A stretch of 64,000 nt of DNA from Candidatus Hermodarchaeum yapensis (GCA_016840405.1 JAEOSK010000006.1:37260-101259), one strand, 5' to 3'. Counted from the stretch's first letter, positions 7,462 to 48,490 are shown. Notes: generated from the sequence alone by a model not told the origin. Program-made: numbers and translations.

Positions 7462-7669
7462 TGAACCAGATCCAATTACAGTTGGAAAGACTCCACGTGA
7501 AATGTTTCAAATCGCTCTCGAAGCAGAGGAAGGAGCGATTAAACTCTATCGAACCATAATCAAACAGGCTGATGAAGAGCAAGACTTTGTCACCCGTCGC
7601 TTGTTTGAAGGAATTTTAGCTGATGAAGAAGACCATCACAACGTGTTTCTCAAACATTTGAAGAAGTGA
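7253..7669 (+). CDS. Short bacterioferritin-like protein, copy 2 (tandem paralog)
   Basis: Same motifs and same 138-aa length as copy 1. Confidence 0.85.
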   Translation: MASRKLLDLLNKGIARELRVSVEYMWNHVKIAGMESESHGDIFKKIAITEMKHAEEIAERVDYLGGEPTTEPDPITVGKTPREMFQIALEAEEGAIKLYRTIIKQADEEQDFVTRRLFEGILADEEDHHNVFLKHLKK

Positions 7670-39522: not shown

Positions 39523-40659
39523 TCAAGGAGCAGGGGGCGAGAGAGCTCCCATTTGACTATACAGTCCTCGAATCTGTTCAGTGAGCAAATCAAGATTCCA
39601 TTCCGTTTTCGCCGAAACCTTCACAGTAGGGAGCCCAAACCGCTCATTGACTAAGGAGGTTACCTCCTCAAGGTGTTCAGCATCCACTGAATCAACTTTA
39701 TTCAACACAACGATAATCCGCGCTTCATCAATTCCAGTCGCCCGTAAAATATCGAGAGAACTCTCCAGTTTCATTTTCAATAACTGAAGCAGATCTGTCG
39801 CATCCACCACAAGCAAGACAACATCTGACGCCCGCATATCATCTAAATTCAATTGGAAGGCAGAAATCAACTCTGGGTCAAGATCCAGAGCAAATCCAAT
39901 CGTATCGGCGAAGAAAATCTCAGGATTTACTGTCATCGACCATTTTGAGGCTAACGTCGTAAACGGCCGATCACTCACTTCTTTTTCCGCCCCAGTCAAT
40001 GCATTGAACAGACTTGTTTTCCCCGCATTGTAGCACCCCACAAGGCACACCATAGGAACTCCCAATTCATACCGCTTTCGCATCCGTTGCCGATGTTCCC
40101 GGCGATGTCGCGCAAGCTCCTTCGTCACCTTAGCAATCCGTTTCCGGACCTGCTGTAACTGAGCGTGATACGCATACTCACCCGGTCCTCGTCCCCCTCG
40201 ACGAGCAGGCCGCTCTTTTAACAGCCGCTCACTCTCTGACACCTTAATATACGGAAAGCTCTTCTGCAATCGTGCTAAATCCAACTGTAGTTGGGAAACA
40301 CGGTCCCGAGCCTCTTGCTCAAACACCCGTAAGACCACCTCATAACGGTCTAAAACGGGTACACCGAATTGCTGTTGCAGATTATACTTCTGCATTGAGG
40401 TTAACACGTTGTAGATCGCCACAACGTCAATCTTCTCCATAGCAACTAGGGTGGCAATCTCTGCTACTTTCCCACGACCAAACACCATACCGCCATGCGT
40501 GCGTATCCGGGTCTGTAGAACGGTTTCAATAACCTCAAATCCCGCTGCTTCCACTAGCTGTAGGAACGCTTCCAATCGAAGCGGCCATTCCACATGATCA
40601 TGAACGTTCTTCTGGAGCATTGCAATGAGTACGCGATTCAGGGATAATCCACCTGCCAA
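39523..40659 (-). CDS. hflX: GTPase HflX
   Basis: G.GK..EI, DR..VVL.VF, GPGE, G..NAGKTS, PFTTL, DTIGF, NKVD, VSAK. Confidence 0.9.
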   Translation of the reverse strand: MAGGLSLNRVLIAMLQKNVHDHVEWPLRLEAFLQLVEAAGFEVIETVLQTRIRTHGGMVFGRGKVAEIATLVAMEKIDVVAIYNVLTSMQKYNLQQQFGVPVLDRYEVVLRVFEQEARDRVSQLQLDLARLQKSFPYIKVSESERLLKERPARRGGRGPGEYAYHAQLQQVRKRIAKVTKELARHRREHRQRMRKRYELGVPMVCLVGCYNAGKTSLFNALTGAEKEVSDRPFTTLASKWSMTVNPEIFFADTIGFALDLDPELISAFQLNLDDMRASDVVLLVVDATDLLQLLKMKLESSLDILRATGIDEARIIVVLNKVDSVDAEHLEEVTSLVNERFGLPTVKVSAKTEWNLDLLTEQIRGLYSQMGALSPPAP

Positions 40660-40996
40660 ACCAAACTGTAGAGCGTTCTAACTTTGTCTATAAAGAATCG
40701 TGCCTTAAAAAGAGAGAGAAAGAGGGAATTTGAACCGATAAAGATGGTGATTTGGCGCACCTTTTTCCTCAACTGTAAAATAAGTGACCAGAACTGACCT
40801 TTTAAAAGCACAACCTCAGAAAAGGCTCCAAATACGCTGAAAATAGACTAGGACGCTGAAAACGGAAACCCCAAGCGCCTAAGCGTATTGATAGATTCTA
40901 CGAGCCGACTTAAATCGCGAATTTCAACATGCGGAAACACTTGGAAACCCTGAAACGTAATCATTATAAGGCGCCACCACGTACAATGTAAACAGC

Positions 40997-41210
40997 GAGA
41001 AAGGTGGCAGTAGTCACCTCCCTCGGGAGGCAACCCCGGGAACAAGCATACTTGGCTTCAACGAGGAAAAGCCGCAATGCAAGCCTAGAATTTTAAAACC
41101 TCGATATCCCCGCTGGAAATCTGTAGCCACACCTTTCTCCCAGGCGAGTGTGCTTCCCTTTGGGGCGGCGTCGAGGCGCCGGGAGGCGGGATCGAGGCAG
41201 CGGCTTAGAC
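40997..41210 (+). ncRNA. Candidate structured non-coding RNA/element (unassigned)
   Basis: 10-bp GAGAAAGGTG/CACCTTTCTC stem, GCAA-capped hairpin, CCTCGAT-ATC-CCCGC/GCGGG-ATCGAGG stem; TTATAA box at ~40963. Confidence 0.35.
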
Positions 41211-41235
41211 TATACCATAGTAGTTTTGAGTAGGT
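41142..41235. repeat. 94-bp palindromic direct repeat, copy 1
   Basis: 84/94 identical to 42915-43008; contains CGGCG-TCGAGG-CGCCG hairpin. Confidence 0.9.
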
Positions 41236-41259
41236 TAATGAAGAGTAAGGAAGCCTACG

Positions 41260-42060
41260 ATGAACCCCCCTGCCCACGTTTTAGACGCATTTGGTGTTCA
41301 TGGAAACCCTGTACGCATGCCAAGTGGGCAAGGGATAACCTTTCGAGTCGGCGAGAGCGTCCTCAAACCCTCATACAATGAAGTAGAAGCGATCTGGATT
41401 ATTGAAATATTGAGTGGCCTTGAAGAACGGGGTTTTCGTGTCCCCCAGTATCTCACAGCTACTGATGGAGATGTGTTAGTGGATAGCTGGATGGCCTATG
41501 AGTTTCTCCCAGGAACCATGTTGGAGGGCCACTGGGCGGCGAAACGGGAAGCCCTAGTACTATTTCACATTGCCTTGAAAGGTATACCGCCACCTCCATT
41601 TTTTGCGAATCGGGATGATCCCTGGGCGCTAGCTGATTTTATGGCCTGGGGAGAGTTGCCAATTACTTGTCATGAGCGTCTGAAACCAGCGATCGGAAAA
41701 TTAGTGCATTGTTTGAGGCCGATTAGGGTCACGAATCAAATTATTCAGGGAGATCCGAGCAATATTCTCTTTGAGGAAGGGCTTCCGCCAGCGATAATTG
41801 ATTTTTGTCCATATTGGCGTCCATCAGCTTTTGCATTAGCAGTTTTGGTGGTGGATGCTTTAGTGTGGAAGAATGCCGAACCCCCTATTTTGCAGTGGTT
41901 TGAGAATATTCGCGACTTCGATCAGCTTCTAGTTAGAGCCGAGTTACGGCGCCTCTTAGAACTGGATGGGCATTACCGGCAATTTGGAAAAGACTGTCTC
42001 GATGAAGTAGATGCCCATTTGACAACAGTCGATTTCATCTGTTCCCAAGTTGTTAGTTAA
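41260..42060 (+). CDS. Aminoglycoside phosphotransferase-like (APH fold) protein
   Basis: VLKP, FRVP, FH.AL, QIIQGD..NILF, IIDFCPYWRP. Confidence 0.75.
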   Translation: MNPPAHVLDAFGVHGNPVRMPSGQGITFRVGESVLKPSYNEVEAIWIIEILSGLEERGFRVPQYLTATDGDVLVDSWMAYEFLPGTMLEGHWAAKREALVLFHIALKGIPPPPFFANRDDPWALADFMAWGELPITCHERLKPAIGKLVHCLRPIRVTNQIIQGDPSNILFEEGLPPAIIDFCPYWRPSAFALAVLVVDALVWKNAEPPILQWFENIRDFDQLLVRAELRRLLELDGHYRQFGKDCLDEVDAHLTTVDFICSQVVS

Positions 42061-42078
42061 GCGAGTGTGCTTCCCTTT
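42061..42078. repeat. Truncated 18-nt copy of the repeat (GCGAGTGTGCTTCCCTTT) abutting the stop codon
   Basis: Exact match to 41144-41161. Confidence 0.8.
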
Positions 42079-42245
42079 TGGCTTTTATGTTGCAAGGGAT
42101 GCTTTGCGCGGAGAGAATGAGGTTAGGTGGTTGCGGGTTATCATTTATTTTTCTTTTTTTGGAAGAAAATTATTTTTTCGATTCGTTATTGCTAAATAGC
42201 ATCTTCAACTATTGATATTGTTGAGTAAATTTTGGGGTCAAAGAT

Positions 42246-42785
42246 GTGGAAAGCGATGTAGATCGCTGGCTCAAGGATTTAGCAGTTCCATTCCTCAAAC
42301 GGGTAGGTATCCAGCCGAAGCAGAGGATCCTCGATTTCGGGTGTGGTCCTGGGTTTTACACTGTTCCTGCGGCACGAATTGTGGGAAAGAGGGGAAGGGT
42401 CTTTGCTTTAGATAAGAGTGCTAAGGTGCTACGAGAACTTGAACAACGTGCTAAGATAGAGAGTCTATCTAATATCGAAATTCTCCTGACGTCTGGTCAG
42501 TTAGTTATACCGTTAGATGATGATTCGGTTAATGTCTGCCTCCTCTATGATGTCATCCATTCCCATTATTTCACGCACCAACGACGAATTACTATTTTAA
42601 GAGAGATTCAACGTGTTTTGAAGTCTGGTGGTTTACTCTCATTCTATCCAAGTCATATGAATTTTGACACCAGTAAAGAATTGCTTGAAAGTATAGGATT
42701 TGAATGCATTGGAACAATGCAGGCAACTCTTCTACACTATTATAGCTTGAAAGAGGATCGAATCCTCAATTTTGTATCTTCTTGA
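42246..42785 (+). CDS. Class I SAM-dependent methyltransferase
   Basis: ILDFGCGPG, ALD, RVLKSGG. Confidence 0.88.
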   Translation: MESDVDRWLKDLAVPFLKRVGIQPKQRILDFGCGPGFYTVPAARIVGKRGRVFALDKSAKVLRELEQRAKIESLSNIEILLTSGQLVIPLDDDSVNVCLLYDVIHSHYFTHQRRITILREIQRVLKSGGLLSFYPSHMNFDTSKELLESIGFECIGTMQATLLHYYSLKEDRILNFVSS

Positions 42786-42914
42786 GACCTACTTTGTAAA
42801 AGGCAGTTTAGTATAGGACGTTAATCTTCTGGAGTATTGTTGGTTCCTAAAAGAGAGGAATTATTACCTAGATATTAGTTGTAAATTGTCAACCGAATTC
42901 TTCGCTTTTTTCAT

Positions 42915-43008
42915 AGGCAAGTGTGCTTCCCTTTGGGACGGCGTCGAGGCGCCGGGAGGCGGGATCGATGTAGTGGCTTAGATCATACTGTAATAGTTTT
43001 GAGTAGGT
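42915..43008. repeat. 94-bp palindromic direct repeat, copy 2
   Basis: 84/94 identical to 41142-41235. Confidence 0.9.
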
Positions 43009-43112
43009 GGTAGCGGAAAGTATAGGATTTTTATGATGACCCTTGCCTTAGCTCGCTAATATTGAGATAAACAAAGATGCCGGGTGTTATTTCGAAATTC
43101 TTGGTGCTTGCT

Positions 43113-43910
43113 ATGAATCAATCAAATAATGTTTCTCTGCAGAAAGCAGATGTTGAAGATGTTAAGGTCCTTACAGACACGTGTAGAAGGGCATTTGATT
43201 CAGACTTGGAGTTTGATGCTCCCGGTCCTGGTGGCCCACCAGGGTATGACTCCATCGAATGGAACACCAAAGCAATTCAGAATAAGTGGCTGCAATATCG
43301 AAAGATTCTGTTTGGTTCAGAAACTGTTGGAGGATTCATTGTGGGGAATAGAGGTCCAGGGTATCAAGTCTGTGAGAGAATCTGGGTCGACCCTGATTTC
43401 ATGAGAAAGGGTATCGCTACGAAAGCCTTCGAACTCATCTGGGAAAAATACCCTTCCGCAGATCTTTGGGTAGTGGGCACTCCGGAGTGGAATGTAAGAA
43501 CGAAGCCTTTCTATGAGAGTCTTGGATTTGTTCAGATTGGTACCACCCATGACTATCCAACGTGGACAGGCAACTACTATGAAAAAAGAATTTCAGATAA
43601 ATTTCCACGAGCCATGTCAAAGATTACGGATATTCAGAATGGTCAGCAGAGAGTTTTGCTGGAGGGAAGGGTGAATCAAATCTCAAGTCCTCGCACAGCG
43701 ACTTCTAGGAAGACGGGTGAGGAACTCAAGGTAGCCGATGTACAACTTTCAGATGATACTGGTTCAATCAAACTCGTGCTCTGGAATGAGCAGATTAGGC
43801 AAGTAAAAGAGAACACGTCGATTCGAATCGAAGAAGGGTACGTCAAAGAATACAGAGATGAACTCCAGCTGAGTGTCGGCCAATGGGGAATGATAATCAC
43901 ATTACTATAA
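43113..43910 (+). CDS. GNAT acetyltransferase fused to SSB/RPA-type OB fold
   Basis: VDPDFMRKGIAT, N...FYESLGF; then KVAD..LSDDTGSIKLVLWNEQ..I.EGYVKEYR..LQLSVG. Confidence 0.85.
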   Translation: MNQSNNVSLQKADVEDVKVLTDTCRRAFDSDLEFDAPGPGGPPGYDSIEWNTKAIQNKWLQYRKILFGSETVGGFIVGNRGPGYQVCERIWVDPDFMRKGIATKAFELIWEKYPSADLWVVGTPEWNVRTKPFYESLGFVQIGTTHDYPTWTGNYYEKRISDKFPRAMSKITDIQNGQQRVLLEGRVNQISSPRTATSRKTGEELKVADVQLSDDTGSIKLVLWNEQIRQVKENTSIRIEEGYVKEYRDELQLSVGQWGMIITLL

Positions 43911-43991
43911 CCCAATTTTCTGATTGATACTTAGATTCAGAGGAAGCAATTTTCACCGATTTTTAATACTTTTGAGAGTTGATTAGATTGA

Positions 43992-44546
43992 TTAGTTTCG
44001 ACAGCCGAAGCGATAAGCCATGGGGGTTGTGCCTTTTGATTTGGTATTGATGCCTTGGAATATAGCAAGGAGCATGAGGGTGGTGAGGTTGAAGAAATAG
44101 TTCGTGTCAAGAAGTACATAGGGTCCCAAGTTACCACTTAGGCTTGGACTTATAAGAAGCCATAATTGCCATCGGATTGGGAACGGGAGGAGAAACGCAC
44201 CTATCCCCGCTCCGATTAACACCCCGAGAAGTAGACACCGGAGTTGAAGATGTTGCGGGCGTTCAGGTAGGCGAGTTAAAACAACAGCGGATGGAATACC
44301 CAGAAGTGCGCCTCGAAACGCTCCGGATAATGTAAGAAGGAATAATTGGCTATCTAGAGTATGGTAAACCATTGCGATTTGTCTGATGTCAGGACAAGGA
44401 TAAAAATTACAATATACAAAGAGTGGAAAGGGAATGAGGACAGTGAGTAAATGGTATATGAAGGATAGGATGATGAAGGCAGTAAGGGTTTTCATGAGAA
44501 AAATGAAGGAACTATTCCGGAATGTCCTCATGGTGTCTAGTACCAT
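43992..44546 (-). CDS. Hypothetical membrane protein
   Basis: Four hydrophobic segments. Confidence 0.5.
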   Translation of the reverse strand: MVLDTMRTFRNSSFIFLMKTLTAFIILSFIYHLLTVLIPFPLFVYCNFYPCPDIRQIAMVYHTLDSQLFLLTLSGAFRGALLGIPSAVVLTRLPERPQHLQLRCLLLGVLIGAGIGAFLLPFPIRWQLWLLISPSLSGNLGPYVLLDTNYFFNLTTLMLLAIFQGINTKSKGTTPMAYRFGCRN

Positions 44547-44616
44547 CTAGTGGGAAATAATTCTACATTTTAGAACAGCTCATGGATTAATCTGTAAAAA
44601 GAGTATCAGGTGCTAT

Positions 44617-44632
44617 CAGGCGAGTGGGCTTC
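44617..44632. repeat. Degenerate 16-nt remnant of the repeat border (CAGGCGAGTGGGCTTC)
   Basis: 15/16 match to 41141-41156, intergenic. Confidence 0.5.
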
Positions 44633-44639
44633 TGGAGTT

Positions 44640-45263
44640 TCATTCATTACATATTTCGGTAGGATCGGGAGCGACGGCGCTGATTGAGAGGGCGACAGGT
44701 TGTGTAAGAGGTTGTTTCCAATCCCGTGGTTTTTTTGATGGTCGAGTGTCGAACTCGGTTAAGAAGCCATTTAGGGCGGTTAGGAGTTCGTGGAAATCGT
44801 CAACGTCCTCAAGTCGGAAGGCCATCATTTTGATGATTTTTTGACATTCTGTAGCTAGCCCTTTAGAAGCCGGATGTCGCATCGACAGCATGAGTTTGGA
44901 TGTGAGTTGGTTAAGGGCTAGGGGGAGATTTTCAAGAGCGAAGACCCAATCTTGGAACGTCTCGGTTCTTCCTGAGACCACAGCGTGTTCTCGAAGTTCT
45001 GACGTGGATAGGGTTTTACTGAGTTCGAGGATGTTTTGTTTGATGTAGTAGTGCAAGCGATAGCGTTTGTCAGCAACCGTGGAATCTTCCTCTTTTTCAA
45101 CCAATCCAGCTTGCAGTAAGAGTGCAAGATTTCGGAAGGTGGTGGCTTTACTTAATCCAGTTTGTTCTCGCAGTTTAGCGGGAGTAGTTTTGCCATGCAG
45201 ATTGAGGTATGAAAAGATGAGAAGACTTGACTCAGAATTGCTGATCTGGGTCAGCAGCTGCAT
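44640..45263 (-). CDS. HTH transcriptional regulator (ArsR/IclR-like N-terminal wHTH)
   Basis: TPAKLREQTGLSKATTFRNL..L..AGLV. Confidence 0.75.
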   Translation of the reverse strand: MQLLTQISNSESSLLIFSYLNLHGKTTPAKLREQTGLSKATTFRNLALLLQAGLVEKEEDSTVADKRYRLHYYIKQNILELSKTLSTSELREHAVVSGRTETFQDWVFALENLPLALNQLTSKLMLSMRHPASKGLATECQKIIKMMAFRLEDVDDFHELLTALNGFLTEFDTRPSKKPRDWKQPLTQPVALSISAVAPDPTEICNE

Positions 45264-45372
45264 TCTCTTCAGTTGTGTGTCTAAAACAGCAGAGGACGGA
45301 ATTGGAATTTCACCCCAATTGATAGGTTGGTCGCGAATAGAAGAGACCGTTAGTCACTTTATTCACGAATCA

Positions 45373-45394
45373 TAACCTATCTCTCTCGTGAGAC
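45373..45394. promoter_or_regulatory. Operator-like box TAACCTATCTCTCTCGTGAGAC upstream of the HTH gene
   Basis: 20/22 match to 46326-46347; next to minus-strand TTTATA box. Confidence 0.65.
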
Positions 45395-45406
45395 GCTATA
45401 AATGAT

Positions 45407-46264
45407 TCACTCACAGCAGCGGGAGGTTCCTACAGAATCAATTGTAGTGTGCCCATGGTCAATGAAAGCGAATTTCTCGTGGGGATAATCTATCACAAAC
45501 TCAAATTGCTGTAAGAAGGGATAGCCGAGGATCCCATCTGGAATTAGATGACATTTGGGTGATATTTTTTCCATGTTGATTACAATTACGGGATGTTCTT
45601 CTACATTCACCCCGCCAACTGAAAGTTGATCTAGTGTGGCAAAATGACCTTCTGCATCTCCTCCAATTCCACGACAAATGCCATCGAAAGGGTTCAGATC
45701 CAAATTAAGTTTGTTAGCTAATTCTGGGGTGATGACCGTCCCACCCGCACCGGTGTCCAGAACGAATTCAAAGGGTCCTTGACCATTGATAGTAACGTGA
45801 ATCCCAATCATATGAGTGTCTTTAATGTAATTGAACGGACTCCACGGGATTGCATCGTCTTTTGTAGAACCATGACCATTACTTGGTTCAAGTCGCAAGG
45901 TTTGAGTTGAATAATTAATAGACATCTTGTAGTGTTTAAGAGTAGTATGACCAATGACGCCGCCCATCTTGTCTGTGCAAGTTGGGAGAACAGATTTGAA
46001 ATCAATAATCAGAACTTCTTCGTCGTCGAACGTGTCGGATCCAATTTGGAGACTGTTTACCTTCGCGGCGACTGCAGGTAAGCCTTCCATTTTTCGGTCC
46101 ATGAGTTCATAGGTTTTGAGGTCGAGTTTTTTAGCTAATGTTTTTGATAGGGTCGTTTTTACGGCTCCAGTGTCTAAAGTAAAATCAAAGGGGCCTTCTC
46201 CGTTCACATAGACGGGAACATGAATATGATGCGTTTCTTTGTCTAGTTTGAATTTTATTTCCAT
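45407..46264 (-). CDS. Two-domain retropepsin-like aspartyl protease
   Basis: Two F.LDTGA motifs with G.IG/GILG motifs. Confidence 0.85.
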   Translation of the reverse strand: MEIKFKLDKETHHIHVPVYVNGEGPFDFTLDTGAVKTTLSKTLAKKLDLKTYELMDRKMEGLPAVAAKVNSLQIGSDTFDDEEVLIIDFKSVLPTCTDKMGGVIGHTTLKHYKMSINYSTQTLRLEPSNGHGSTKDDAIPWSPFNYIKDTHMIGIHVTINGQGPFEFVLDTGAGGTVITPELANKLNLDLNPFDGICRGIGGDAEGHFATLDQLSVGGVNVEEHPVIVINMEKISPKCHLIPDGILGYPFLQQFEFVIDYPHEKFAFIDHGHTTIDSVGTSRCCE

Positions 46265-46325
46265 CGAAAGTTACACCTTTTACAAGTTTGAAAGCCGTTC
46301 TTCGGGTAATAGATAGAATTATGCT

Positions 46326-46373
46326 TAACCTATCTCACCCGTGAGACACGTAGACCTGGCTCTCTCATGAGAC
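46326..46373. promoter_or_regulatory. Two operator-like boxes (TCTCAC-CC-GTGAGA and TCTCTCATGAGAC) upstream of the protease
   Basis: Palindromic core repeated; beside minus-strand TTTAAATA box. Confidence 0.65.
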
Positions 46374-46431
46374 ATATTTAAATCTTTTTCTACAGCCACG
46401 ACTTCTAAAAGGATTGTCCGGAATTTCTAAA

Positions 46432-46866
46432 TTATAATTCACCGATATCTTCATTCCAAAGTTGGGGAAATGTTTCGATGAATTCCCGCATCATTTTTTT
46501 ACACTCGAGGAGATTTAAGTCGATGACTTCTACACCGTGCGATTTCATGAATTCTGATGCGCCTGGAAATGTTTCGGATTCGCCGACGATGACACGTTTA
46601 ATCTTAAATTGCACAATAGCCCCTGCACACAGGTAACAGGGCATCAATGTAGAATACAGCGTGGCTCCTAGGTAGCTTCCAACGCGTCCAGCGTTTTGGA
46701 GACAAGCAATTTCTGCATGTAAGATGGGATTGTTTTGTTGTACGCGTTGATTATGACCCTGACCAACAATGGTTCCCTCCTTTACAAGTATTGAACCGAT
46801 GGGGATACCTCCTTCCTGACGGCTTTTCTTCGCTTGGTCAATAGCAGCTTGCATGAATGGGTCCAT
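46432..46866 (-). CDS. Cytosine/nucleoside deaminase (CDA fold, FCY1-like)
   Basis: EGGIPIGS, HAE, PCYLC, WNEDIGE. Confidence 0.9.
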   Translation of the reverse strand: MDPFMQAAIDQAKKSRQEGGIPIGSILVKEGTIVGQGHNQRVQQNNPILHAEIACLQNAGRVGSYLGATLYSTLMPCYLCAGAIVQFKIKRVIVGESETFPGASEFMKSHGVEVIDLNLLECKKMMREFIETFPQLWNEDIGEL

Positions 46867-46921
46867 TGTTCAAATCTCCACAGCATTTAGTAGTTATACA
46901 CGGAGAATTTGTAGCATAAAG

Positions 46922-47557
46922 TTATTTTAAGTGATTTTCGTTTTGTTTGTGACGGCGTAGAGGGGGCAGGAAGCGCCCAGTTCGTTGCATATAGCTACGA
47001 TATTGGTCGCCAAATTGGGTGATCAGCATTCGTTCTTCTCGCTTTGAAATGGGATATAACATGATGATAATGAGGAGGGCAAATATGGTGACGAAGAGGT
47101 TGGCAATGATGAGAAGTATTGAGAGGGTGATGAGAATGAAGACAGTGTACATGGGATGGCGAACCCGCGAATAGGGGCCAGCTGTGATGATGACATGTTC
47201 GTCAATTACTCTTAGTTCAGCCCCATAATAGCGACCTAAGGTTCGGTGTATCCAGGTTATTAGTGGCAGGGCGCTGATGCCAAGAATGACACCCACCCAT
47301 CGTAGGAAAGAGGGGAATGGTAGGTGGAACCACAGACTCAAAAGCGGAATTAGAAAATAGATGATAAGGGATGCAAACATCCCAATGATGCCTATGAATA
47401 ATAGTACTCCGGCCCACCCAAGACTTTGTTTGCGGGTTGTCTCTGTTTTGTTTTGAGATTCTTTTCGGGCAACTTTGCTACGATAGTAAATGCGTATTGT
47501 TGCAAAGATTCCGAAGATTAAGAGGAGGAGAATTTGAAACAGGAGTTCTTCATTCAT
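46922..47557 (-). CDS. Isoprenylcysteine carboxyl methyltransferase (ICMT/PEMT) family membrane protein
   Basis: GPYSRVRHPMY, EE..L...FG..Y..Y...T.RF.P. Confidence 0.88.
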   Translation of the reverse strand: MNEELLFQILLLLIFGIFATIRIYYRSKVARKESQNKTETTRKQSLGWAGVLLFIGIIGMFASLIIYFLIPLLSLWFHLPFPSFLRWVGVILGISALPLITWIHRTLGRYYGAELRVIDEHVIITAGPYSRVRHPMYTVFILITLSILLIIANLFVTIFALLIIIMLYPISKREERMLITQFGDQYRSYMQRTGRFLPPLRRHKQNENHLK

Positions 47558-47695
47558 TTTGAACAACCTCAATCAGTAGAACGGCAGGGTGTTAAGTTCA
47601 AGTGGAATTGAATCTTTCCGTTAGGGGCAAATCAGTGTTTTCTACTGCATAGGAATATCCTGTGTATCAGATAACAATTGAAAAAGCCCTATAGA

Positions 47696-48490
47696 TTAGA
47701 TGCGGACACCATAGCCTTGGCTTTTGAGAGCTGCAATCCATGTTTCCTGAGATTTGGTAAGTGTTAGCAGGGGGTTTTTTTCTAGTCGTAGGACCTTCAA
47801 AGAAGTGAGATTGGTGATTGAATCGGGAAGATGGGTTAGTTGGTTGATGTTGAGTGATAGTGTTTCCAGTCCCGTCAGGTTGCCTAGGGATTCCGGAAGG
47901 GCAGTAAGCTGGTTATTGTGAACTGAGAGAATTTTAAGTTTAGTCAGCTGCCCCATACTTTCGGGGAGGTTTTGTAACTGATTGATTGCGGCGATGAAAT
48001 CATACAGTTTGCTCAACTTTCCAATGCTCTCGGGTAGTTCCCTTAATTGAACATTGAGAAGACCCAGTCGTTTTAGGGATTTGAGTTGTCCAATCGTGTG
48101 AGGAAGGCGTGGTATTTGATTTCGTGATAAATCAAATCGCCAGAGGTTGGGTAAATCGCCAATACTATCAGGGAGGGTTTGGATTTGGTTGCTGAAGACA
48201 TCGAGGTTCTGGAGTTGTTTGAGTTCACCGATGCTTTCGGGAAGTGTTGTGAGGTGGTTGTCCCGAAGATATAACCGTTGGAGATTGGTGAGATTGCGAA
48301 TGGTTTCGGGGAGTTCCTTTAGTTGTTGTTGTCGTAAACTTAGACCGATGACGCTTGTTCCTTCATAAACGAAGCCGGTTCGATAGAAGCCAATACCTTG
48401 ATCAGGAATGGGTTTGCCGATGATTTCTTCAAGTTCTTTGAGGACGCGAACCTCTTCGACTTTAAGTTGGATATTGCGATAGTTGGTCAT
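47696..48490 (-). CDS. Leucine-rich repeat protein
   Basis: About 8 23-aa repeats LxxLxLxxNxLxxLPxxIGxL. Confidence 0.92.
   Translation of the reverse strand: MTNYRNIQLKVEEVRVLKELEEIIGKPIPDQGIGFYRTGFVYEGTSVIGLSLRQQQLKELPETIRNLTNLQRLYLRDNHLTTLPESIGELKQLQNLDVFSNQIQTLPDSIGDLPNLWRFDLSRNQIPRLPHTIGQLKSLKRLGLLNVQLRELPESIGKLSKLYDFIAAINQLQNLPESMGQLTKLKILSVHNNQLTALPESLGNLTGLETLSLNINQLTHLPDSITNLTSLKVLRLEKNPLLTLTKSQETWIAALKSQGYGVRI

Follow-up and report, generated by a model that had tools for sequence, protein, structure and literature searches.

The 3′ ends of tRNA and tmRNA genes are sites at which integrases build up tandem genomic islands, and archaeal elements of the SSV and pNOB8 types likewise integrate into tRNA genes. 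Other gene modules depend on Xer recombination, as known for the IMEX elements at dif and the pdif modules of Acinetobacter plasmids, and additive flexible genomic islands beside conserved RNA genes are built by homologous recombination between strains. A further class comprises integron cassette arrays and CALINs, archaeal ones included (Ghaly et al. 2022, PMC9668308).

The locus described here lies in a stretch of 64,000 nucleotides from Candidatus Hermodarchaeum yapensis (GCA_016840405.1, JAEOSK010000006.1:37260-101259; genome G000), hereafter termed the window, and all positions are counted from its first letter. A first-pass annotation had described a cassette-like gene array punctuated by a palindromic repeat with one fixed border. 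Our analysis suggests that a candidate non-coding gene immediately upstream is the source of the repeats, which would be copies of its 3′ domain (termed tail, from 41130), some complete, some partial and some decayed. The features referred to below are the following:

39523-40659, − strand: hflX-type GTPase gene (Pfam GTP-bdg_N, MMR_HSR1, GTP-bdg_M), the conserved left neighbour
40964-40969, + strand: TTATAA box, candidate archaeal TATA element of the RNA gene
about 40993-41226, + strand favoured: candidate structured non-coding RNA gene of about 235 nt, both ends predicted
40997-41006, + strand: 5′ strand of helix P1 (GAGAAAGGTG), pairing with 41130-41139
41034-41140, + strand: head, the single-copy, near-invariant part, which holds the P2 5′ strand (41034-41037 and 41044-41052)
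41130-41235, + strand: tail copy 1, the resident 3′ domain, presumably functional, with the P1 3′ strand (41130-41139), the common core (41130-41156), the P2 3′ strand (41147-41155 and 41162-41165), hairpin H3 (41166-41181), GCGGCTT (41200-41206) and a T-run (41223-41226)
41260-42060, + strand: unit 1 cargo, a kinase-fold (APH-like) protein related to TIGR02569
42058-42150, + strand: tail copy 2, displaced, decayed, type B; core 88% identical over 24 nt
42246-42785, + strand: unit 2 cargo, a class I SAM-dependent methyltransferase (Pfam Methyltransf_25/11/31)
42907-43008, + strand: tail copy 3, displaced, full-length, type A; 87% identical to copy 1 over 102 nt
43077-43910, + strand: GNAT acetyltransferase fused to an SSB/RPA-type OB fold (domain search)
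43992-44546, − strand: ORF of 184 aa with hydrophobic segments, within a segment of about 0.7 kb that is absent from the close relative G005
44617-44632, + strand: tail copy 4, a remnant of the core only (15/16 match), where the G000-specific segment ends on the right
44640-47572, − strand: right-hand genes for a MarR-type regulator, an aspartyl protease, a deaminase and an ICMT-type methyltransferase (Pfam)

The four co-oriented copies of the first-pass annotation were recovered on the + strand at 41141-41235, 42058-42081, 42914-43008 and 44617-44632, and their start-to-start distances of 917, 856 and 1703 nt agree with the units of about 0.9, 0.9 and 1.7 kb given there. A degenerate 13-mer border pattern, which was built from the very four copies being counted, matches 4 times in the window versus 0.29 expected (0/100 shuffles reach 4), and a profile built on the tails of relatives recovers the same four sites and no others. 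Correctly described were also the two long copies, identical at 84/94 positions with an invariant run of 30 nt (41166-41195), and the second copy, which abuts the TAA stop of ORF 41260-42060. The border itself did not prove to be fixed. The repeated unit truly starts at about 41130, displaced copies of relatives take in up to 11 extra upstream bases, and relatives also carry tail copies cut on the opposite side that keep the 3′ end alone, so one fixed border fails as a general rule. Moreover, the proposed one-sided truncation gave way for copy 2: positions 42061-42150 are 76% identical to the head-adjacent tail of the relative G010, which marks it as a decayed copy of about 90 nt of another tail type (type B), not a truncated one. 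As to the palindrome, hairpin H3 was found, whereas the repeat in isolation folds no better than shuffled sequence on either strand (z 0.18 to −0.71).

The suggestion of target-primed reverse transcription, or more generally of a retroelement or MITE-type repeat spread by this route or by transposition, draws on window copies that share one border and seem to differ in length. It is already contradicted and carries next to no probability: neither the RT domain PF00078 nor a serine recombinase or Y1 transposase was found in G000 (86% complete), and its 32 TnpB-like matches all lie outside the window, for which the first-pass annotation had already stated that it contains no integrase, transposase or RT. 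In addition, the repeat is confined to this single locus of the 2.7-Mb assembly, with none of the copies at unrelated loci that mark a MITE, and occurs in relatives only beside the same RNA gene; the seemingly short copy 2 proves to be a diverged copy of full length, and the copies of relatives are also cut at the opposite end.

The upstream element shows 1-2-nt indels in an A-run as well as hairpin insertions of 29-31 nt in two relatives, and no ORF conservation pattern, which argues for a non-coding gene. Long-range helices connect the head with the tail. All 10 pairs of P1 are kept in 9 of 11 sequences; in the second genus an A-to-G change yields a G-U pair, with the helix intact in one of the three sequences compared and one mismatch apiece, elsewhere in the helix, in the remaining two. 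Likewise, one-sided changes in G016 (A-U to G-U, U-G to C-G) preserve pairing. Across the head-adjacent sequences, 95.5% of structure cells are paired versus 35-49% when slid, and four pairs have changed on both sides, which 3 of 500 shuffles attain; with so little variation in the head, covariation is sparse. Folding of the reverse strand is of similar strength (−29.4 versus −26.4 kcal/mol), and one 7-bp helix is possible on the minus strand alone. Three features favour transcription from the + strand, and hence the label 3′ domain: two helices contain G-U pairs, a TATA-like box lies upstream and T-runs are present. The surroundings of this box (aaacgtaaccattataagg) are conserved in the genus, and it is located about 27 nt ahead of the first conserved helix strand; the gene would thus start downstream of the box and end at the T-run 41223-41226.

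Rfam 15 gave no match at gathering scores in the window, and within 40500-45000 even a search relaxed to E=10 brought up no relevant family. RNase P RNA and SRP RNA were rejected as identities, both being found elsewhere in the genome, and no tRNA or tmRNA was detected at the element. Judged from sequence, the gene appears to encode an unclassified, lineage-specific and extremely conserved RNA of Hermod-type Asgard archaea: an RNA model (R1) matches in 16/18 Hermodarchaeia genomes and in 0/132 other Asgard genomes, and head identity is 99-100% among members of the genus and 84-92% in the sister genus, whereas the flanking proteins are 60-95% identical within the genus. Thirteen of the 16 genomes with a DNA-search match show one head on the contigs fetched, either whole or cut by the contig end; in G010 and G003, two or three contigs carry the element, and of G006 the contig covered in this count contains a tail only.

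Additional tail-only copies were located downstream of the head, in direct orientation without exception. The head-adjacent tails fall into at least four sequence types (A to D), all of which keep the 27-nt core, a hairpin at the same place (CGGCG..CGCCG, CTGGCA..TGCCAG, CGGCA..TGCCG or GTCACAAGC..GCTTGTGAT), the GCGGGG and GYGGCTT motifs and the T-run. The displaced tails decay, and in six of them the core is 75% conserved versus about 89% for the hairpin and its flanks, as expected if these copies stop pairing with the head.

The hflX gene is transcribed away from the RNA gene, and its orthologue adjoins the element in all relatives with enough contig. On the other side, the genes directly behind the RNA gene vary by species and are shuffled within one genus. 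At least six lineages differ at this position, with an APH-like gene, GNAT-OB, methyltransferases, an MFS transporter, a luciferase-like gene or a 14-kb island, and the same units recur in differing orders among genomes; this variation in content speaks against a simple local duplication with identical gene order. In the sister genus, the RNA gene is followed by fixed genes (for a gelsolin-repeat protein and an Fe-S protein) and no extra tails are found. The APH-like gene stands directly 3′ of the RNA gene in G000, G002 and G005 only, whereas GNAT-OB takes this place in G007, G001, G014, L199 and L200 and is probably the ancestral right neighbour in the genus. Orthologues of the methyltransferase 42246-42785 occupy different array positions in G010, G012 and G013. 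With respect to the cargo first assigned, domain matches support the methyltransferase and the GNAT-OB fusion. The APH-like identity is a lead only, since ORF 41260-42060 scores 108 bits against TIGR02569, under the cut-off of 136.75, with Atlas neighbours in APH/RIO kinase clusters and no Pfam match. The supposed membrane protein (43992-44546) has hydrophobic segments, and a search for a homologue found none.

Compared with G007, G001 and G014, G000 contains an insertion of 1773 bp between the two long tails, so that this 1.77-kb segment of the window is flanked by a 102-nt repeat of 87% identity. In these three genomes and in two metagenome contigs, the head-adjacent tail plus GNAT-OB aligns colinearly with 42907-43929 at about 80-82% identity; tail copy 3 travels with the GNAT-OB gene. 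The counterpart in G010 (contig C42) is 83.5% identical, and the matching tail there is a displaced copy. Moreover, G010 carries a 14-kb insertion between perfect 27-nt repeats of the core, and contigs C55 and C2 of G003 differ by a segment of 3.66 kb between perfect 26-nt repeats of the tail 3′ end. The junctions of these clean insertions of G010 and G003 sit in two different tail blocks, the only stretches common to otherwise divergent tails. In G002 and G005, other DNA without a tail lies between the APH-like and GNAT-OB genes, so not every difference among close relatives is tail-bounded.

The reading that we consider likely is that the tails are left-over copies of the 3′ domain of the RNA gene and that the DNA behind this gene is a gene-swap hotspot in one Hermodarchaeia genus. 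Incoming DNA would recombine with the chromosome in short blocks of exact identity within the 3′ domain, namely the 27-nt core (41130-41156) and the GCGGGG...GCGGCT 3′ end. With each insertion, the 5′ part would stay as it is and receive a new 3′ domain of equivalent structure, while the old one would be shoved downstream to decay as a direct repeat, and repeated rounds would leave small gene units in a row, separated by tails. The first-pass interpretation as a whole is thereby partly supported; of its variants, the one that fits the repeats as described here is an att-site duplication affecting the 3′ end of an RNA gene.

As to the mechanism, we favour, at about even odds, ordinary homologous recombination, in which the partners would be either two arrays or the chromosome and a circular intermediate. 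Junctions in two different identity blocks favour such homology-driven exchange. As in additive flexible islands, an ultra-conserved gene would serve as homology anchor, an exchange can leave a scar copy of the gene end, and a dedicated recombinase is unnecessary. Unlike in those islands, several sequence types of the 3′ domain circulate here with the fold always kept, suggesting selection to restore the RNA after each exchange. Homologous exchange by itself leaves the origin of the first duplication unexplained. A site-specific recombinase acting in trans ranks second, as a plausible but less probable route, and stays in play because 26-27 nt of identity is the usual length of an att core and makes a short substrate for homologous recombination.

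A more specific version of the latter holds that the site is an integron-type capture platform, at which a tyrosine recombinase from another locus, for instance the XerA-type enzyme on contig C16 of G000, would insert circular single-gene cassettes bearing tails into the core. The small (0.9-1.7 kb) and mostly co-oriented units without a recombinase, their order varying by genome, and the perfect flanking repeats of att-core size would fit this idea. Small, mostly co-oriented accessory genes with a repeat of about 100 nt between them, no recombinase within the array, the newest unit at a fixed site and reshuffled units are likewise features of integron arrays and CALINs (PMC9668308), and array content does vary among related genomes. 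Nevertheless, we judge this version unlikely. The left neighbour of the site is hflX and not IntI, and all TIGR02249 matches in 19 genomes of the class stay below the 265-bit cut-off. By inspection, the ends of the 94-102-nt repeat are not complementary (no R″/R′ pairing) and lack RYYYAAC/GTTRRRY motifs, as already remarked in the first-pass annotation, which had nonetheless proposed an integron-like dedicated capture. The repeat here is part of an RNA gene and not attC, precedes its gene and bears the terminator-like T-run of the RNA, and two tail blocks instead of one site serve as junctions.

The modules served by Xer recombinases come closer in that integrase-less genes are bounded by short repeated sites and possibly served by the host. 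A XerA-type recombinase over the NF040815 cut-off is encoded in 12 of 14 array-bearing genomes of the genus and in none of the four sister-genus genomes, which have no arrays. However, XerA is patchy across Asgard genomes (65/121 at E<=1e-30), so the genus contrast amounts to a single, non-independent comparison. Nor does the core look like dif, whose sites of about 28 bp have two inverted arms separated by a 6-8-bp spacer: inspection around 41130-41165 showed no inverted symmetry, and the site lies inside an RNA gene. Matches to PF00589 in G000 are restricted to contigs C16 and C53, and the arrays examined in about 14 genomes, with their flanks, yielded no recombinase gene (Pfam, NCBIfam, PHROGs). 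No genome links a recombinase to the site, and the co-occurrence of repeat and recombinase or RT that the first-pass annotation had proposed to look for comes down to the genus-level XerA pattern. All genomes are incomplete MAGs, and contig ends often fall within the element, so that the reconstruction of arrays is limited and recombinase genes may have been missed.

Less likely still, the units could be remnants of integrative plasmids or viruses that used their own integrase at the RNA gene and then lost it together with most genes. The resemblance to the islands at tRNA and tmRNA genes is close: the 3′ portion of a small structured RNA gene serves as target, the incoming DNA supplies a replacement that pairs with the head, so that, given the favoured strand, the gene would stay whole, and the displaced part persists as a direct repeat, repeated events giving arrays of partial copies. 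Direct repeats of the core do flank inserted DNA, four tail types suggest several element lineages, and the 14-kb insert of G010 holds what a mobile element might bring, namely several orphan ORFs and an additional, diverged set of Rad50/Mre11/HerA/NurA-like genes. Unlike in those islands, the target is an unclassified RNA of about 235 nt of one Asgard class, the units are mostly single genes and junctions fall in two different 3′-domain blocks. Moreover, the cargo consists of ordinary small-enzyme genes, integrase, replication and capsid genes are absent from the arrays of about 14 genomes, no viral contig carries the core, and the sporadic integrase-bearing contigs of relatives contain no tail sequence.

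Copies 1 and 3 end 25 and 69 nt upstream of the APH-like and GNAT-OB start codons, respectively, and both genes are of drug-modifying enzyme type, as might be expected of a cis-regulatory leader (riboswitch-like or attenuator) copied ahead of the genes it controls. We regard this as very improbable, given that copy 2 lies 168 nt from its gene, the gene after copy 4 is on the opposite strand, displaced copies decay, the close relative G005 has a tail-less GNAT-OB, one tail precedes unrelated genes across relatives and Rfam gives no match.

A slim chance is left for the RNA being part of the capture machinery itself, which would make the locus an RNA-centred gene-capture system of Asgard archaea. 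In this case, the 5′ segment 41044-41052, complementary to the core of every incoming unit, could guide recombination; alternatively, the RNA could target, in trans, those transcripts of captured genes that bear a tail. The bridge RNAs of IS110 elements, which pair with their DNA sites, offer a partial parallel for RNA-guided recombination.

At the right-hand end of the array, G005 retains the motif at the place of tail copy 4 in a more degraded form, and colinearity between G000 and G005 resumes at 44623. Synteny with other species picks up again at the last right-hand gene, encoding the ICMT-type methyltransferase, and orthologues of 46922-47572 and 47696-48490 close the variable stretch in G005, G007, G012, G014, G011 and L200.

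The motif (C/T)A(G/A)GC(G/A)AGTG(T/G)GCTTC occurs four times in the window (0.29 occurrences expected), and opens four co-oriented copies of a repeat at positions 41141, 42058, 42914 and 44617. The two long copies are identical at 84 of 94 positions and share an invariant run of 30 nucleotides at 41166–41195, and the repeat array described in the first-pass annotation was thereby borne out. A tail profile built from related genomes returned the same four sites and nothing more in the 64-kb window, and a search of the whole 2.7-Mb assembly confined the repeat to this one locus. The following open reading frames lie between the copies.

Open reading frames between the repeat copies
41260–42060, APH-like gene: kinase-fold protein, related to TIGR02569; its Atlas neighbours are of the APH/RIO type, and Pfam gave no match
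SAM methyltransferase
43077–43910, GNAT-OB: fusion of a GNAT acetyltransferase and an OB-fold
Hydrophobic orphan ORF on the opposite strand

We favour the view that the repeat is the 3′-domain, hereafter termed the tail, of a candidate RNA gene of approximately 235 nucleotides, read from the + strand. In related genomes, the alignment extends past the repeat into the 100–190 nucleotides upstream of copy 1, and is far better than in the flanking genes. The head, i.e. the 5′-part of the element at 41034–41140, is present in a single copy and is 99–100% identical across the genus and 84–92% identical in the sister genus, with the neighbouring proteins being only 60–95% identical. In all contigs long enough to include the left flank, it adjoins hflX and the class I lysS gene. 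An A-run in the head region varies by 1–2-nucleotide indels between species, and two species carry one insert each, of 29 and 31 nucleotides, one of which is a GCCC-UUCG-GGGC hairpin; together, these indels and insertions indicate that the head is non-coding. The two inserts are located at different places in the otherwise invariant head (loci L046 on G013:C407 and L209 on G003:C26; 31 nucleotides with a UUCG loop, and 29 nucleotides; both hairpin-like), and expansions of this type are known from structured RNAs.

A covariance model comprising the head and the first 48 nucleotides of the tail, applied with strict filters, matched 16 of the 18 genomes in the family and gave no hit in 132 genomes from elsewhere in the phylum. 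No Rfam family matched the element at gathering or permissive thresholds, and ARAGORN predicted neither a tRNA nor a tmRNA there. RNase P RNA and SRP RNA were ruled out, as both are located elsewhere in the genome. Likewise, neither this RNA nor any array linked to an RNA gene is described in the Asgard mobile-element papers that we searched. The orphan RNA is a more interesting object than the array: a structured RNA that is extremely conserved in its Asgard lineage and for which two long-range helices that cross each other are predicted, it provides a concrete target for metatranscriptomics.

A 24-nucleotide motif of the central domain of the RNA (ATATCCCCGCTG-GAAATCTGTAG) recurs with two changes around position 12951 of contig G000:C27 in the window's own genome (minus strand; L212) and at 7494–7518 of G014:C10 in a relative (L211). 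The chance expectation for this match is approximately 5e-5, a similar CCTAGAAT precedes the motif at this second locus, and the surrounding ~0.9 kb is devoid of a convincing ORF. As the G000:C27 locus shows no Rfam match and is just 68–76% conserved beyond the two closest relatives, it was rejected as a second copy of the RNA gene.

Two long-range helices are predicted. In P1, positions 40997–41006 pair with 41130–41139, and all ten pairs are kept in nine of 11 sequences; in the sister genus an A-to-G change yields a G-U pair at one position. In P2, 41034–41037 and 41044–41052 pair with 41162–41165 and 41147–41155, respectively. The nine inner pairs of P2 are kept in every sequence, with two one-sided changes in G016 (A-U to G-U and U-G to C-G), and its outer pairs show changes from C-G to A-U and to U-A. 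Since P1 and P2 cross, they would either make up a pseudoknot or be alternatives to each other; they are followed by the hairpin H3 at 41166–41181. Overall, 95.5% of the cells are paired in the proposed structure, compared with 35–49% when the partner is slid, and the number of two-sided pair changes, four, is reached by three of 500 shuffles. Because variation is small, these comparisons of sequence support rather than prove a long-range structure joining head and tail. The isolated repeat, folded on either strand, performed no better than shuffles.

The G-U pairs in P2 and in variants of H3 fit the + strand, which we therefore favour, whereas in consensus folding the reverse strand performs about equally overall and a single 7-bp helix is possible on the minus strand only. 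On the + strand, the RNA would start near 40993, approximately 27 nucleotides past a conserved TTATAA box at 40964, and would end at a T-run at 41223–41226.

In all four genomes of the sister genus (G015–G018), the RNA gene is followed by the same genes, encoding a gelsolin-repeat protein and an Fe-S protein, and extra tails are absent. In the window's genus, the gene immediately 3′ of the RNA gene varies.

Genes directly behind the RNA gene in the window's genome (G000) and its relatives
G007, G001, G014 and two metagenome contigs: GNAT-OB
G000, G002 and G005: APH-like gene
G012: methyltransferase (299 aa) followed by an orphan (490 aa)
G003 (two alternative contigs): MFS transporter, or DUF4332 protein
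G011: luciferase-like oxidoreductase
G013: 230-aa orphan
G010: 14-kb island carrying a divergent second set of Rad50/Mre11/HerA/NurA-like genes

Synteny is restored from the ICMT-type gene (46922–47572) and its neighbours onward. The order of the units differs as well: the methyltransferase precedes GNAT-OB in G000 and follows it in G012, an ICMT-like gene is found on either side of GNAT-OB in G003 and G012, and one orphan gene, which in G010 and G013 is located 3′ of the RNA gene, sits deep within the array of G012. Almost all genomes of the genus contain GNAT-OB or an orthologue, usually first or early behind the RNA gene, and GNAT-OB is probably the ancestral neighbour of the RNA gene rather than a mobile cassette. 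The Rad50/Mre11/HerA/NurA-like set of the G010 island is located at 2900–10800 of L031 (G010:C43), and the island also contains several orphan ORFs. Its Mre11-, HerA- and NurA-like proteins are only 27–32% identical to their counterparts on G000:C40, and the Rad50-like protein has no match in G000; the island may represent an accessory module for DNA-end processing or defence.

Compared with the genomes in which GNAT-OB comes first, the window contains an insertion of 1773 bp bounded by tails 1 and 3, and the block of tail 3 plus GNAT-OB is colinear with the resident, i.e. head-adjacent, tail plus GNAT-OB of these genomes. The head-adjacent tails belong to at least four sequence types, all of which retain the 27-nucleotide core (41130–41156), a hairpin at the same place though of different sequence, the motifs GCGGGG and GYGGCTT, and the T-run, so that each incoming tail can rebuild the RNA. 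The displaced tails farther downstream decay, and most so in the part that would pair with a head (core 75% conserved, compared with ~89% for the hairpin, in six copies). All copies are in direct orientation. Copy 2, previously considered truncated, is instead a decayed copy of another tail type, which is resident in G010.

The single fixed border proposed in the first-pass annotation is seen in the window, but does not hold in general. The G010 island is flanked by a perfect repeat of the 27-nucleotide core, and the two tails beyond it are of different types. In G003, contig C55 corresponds to contig C2 plus a segment of 3.66 kb flanked by a perfect 26-nucleotide repeat, which represents the 3′-end of the tail and not the core; moreover, a stray fragment of the tail 3′-end lies between the resident tail and the first gene in G010. 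The junctions thus fall in two blocks, which are the only stretches common to the otherwise divergent tails.

A single crossover within the 3′-part of the RNA gene would bring in DNA that restores the gene and displaces its old 3′-end. We consider homologous recombination the more likely route, either from array to array or between the chromosome and circles that have looped out, because the junctions lie wherever blocks happen to be identical and the head provides >100 nucleotides of perfect identity between co-occurring species. The main rival is a site-specific enzyme acting in trans. No recombinase domain was found in any unit from ~14 genomes, and searches of the orphan ORFs of the inserted units with Pfam, NCBIfam and PHROGs revealed no hidden recombinase. 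A scan of viral contigs for the core gave no match, and a metagenome scan for core plus loop yielded three contigs only, each with a head beside the tail, and no free element. Tail sequence was found neither beside the sporadic integrases of the relatives nor on G000:C53. A lead to such an enzyme is a XerA-type recombinase (above the NF040815 cut-off), present in 12 of the 14 genomes of the window's genus, which carries arrays, and not found in the four sister-genus genomes (80–83% complete). As XerA is patchy across Asgard genomes, this amounts to one weak contrast. The co-occurrence at the genus level is real, but XerA stays no more than a lead. Neither reverse transcriptase nor serine recombinase nor Y1 transposase was detected in G000. 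Neither homologous recombination nor a trans-acting enzyme accounts by itself for the first duplication.

TnpB-like genes are numerous in G000, all outside the window; across the whole genome, the TnpB/Cas12f-type zinc-ribbon domain (PF07282) is matched 32 times. Given the lack of Y1 transposase and serine recombinase, these genes appear to stand alone.

Integrons and CALINs are known in Asgard MAGs (PMC9668308), and the array looks like them. However, IntI, attC-type ends and an intI-attI arrangement are all absent from the array, and the integron-integrase model gave only sub-threshold XerA-type matches and one unlinked IntI-like fragment in G013. This fragment (G013:C49 2–376; L205) is an open frame, truncated at the end of its contig, that covers the N-terminal 125 positions of TIGR02249 with 148.7 bits, far above the XerA-type genes, on a contig without tail sequence; it may derive from a true archaeal integron or from a contaminant contig. 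With a crossover in the 3′-part, a restored gene and a displaced old end, the site has the anatomy of tRNA/tmRNA-type insertion sites and tandem islands, except that here the units lack an integrase, an unclassified RNA serves as the target, and the junctions fall in two blocks. The first reading was therefore partly right: duplication of the 3′-end of an RNA gene, at a gene-swap hotspot, stands, whereas an integron-like or retro-type system does not.

Integrase-less cassette arrays that look like integrons can thus form where a conserved RNA gene ends, and surveys of archaeal MAGs should allow for them when tallying 'cassette arrays' or 'novel capture systems'. At this locus, foreign genes have a natural point of entry into the genomes of these archaea. 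A kinase-fold gene with bacterial families as its closest kin is among those that entered, which bears on the acquisition of bacterial genes by Asgard archaea. Since the head is identical in co-occurring species, MAG contigs break at the element, as they do at rRNA genes, which explains why its context is missing in these genomes. The 16S rRNA gene match of G000 (C71 619–4212) spans 3.6 kb, compared with 1478 positions of the model, and this gene therefore probably contains large introns.
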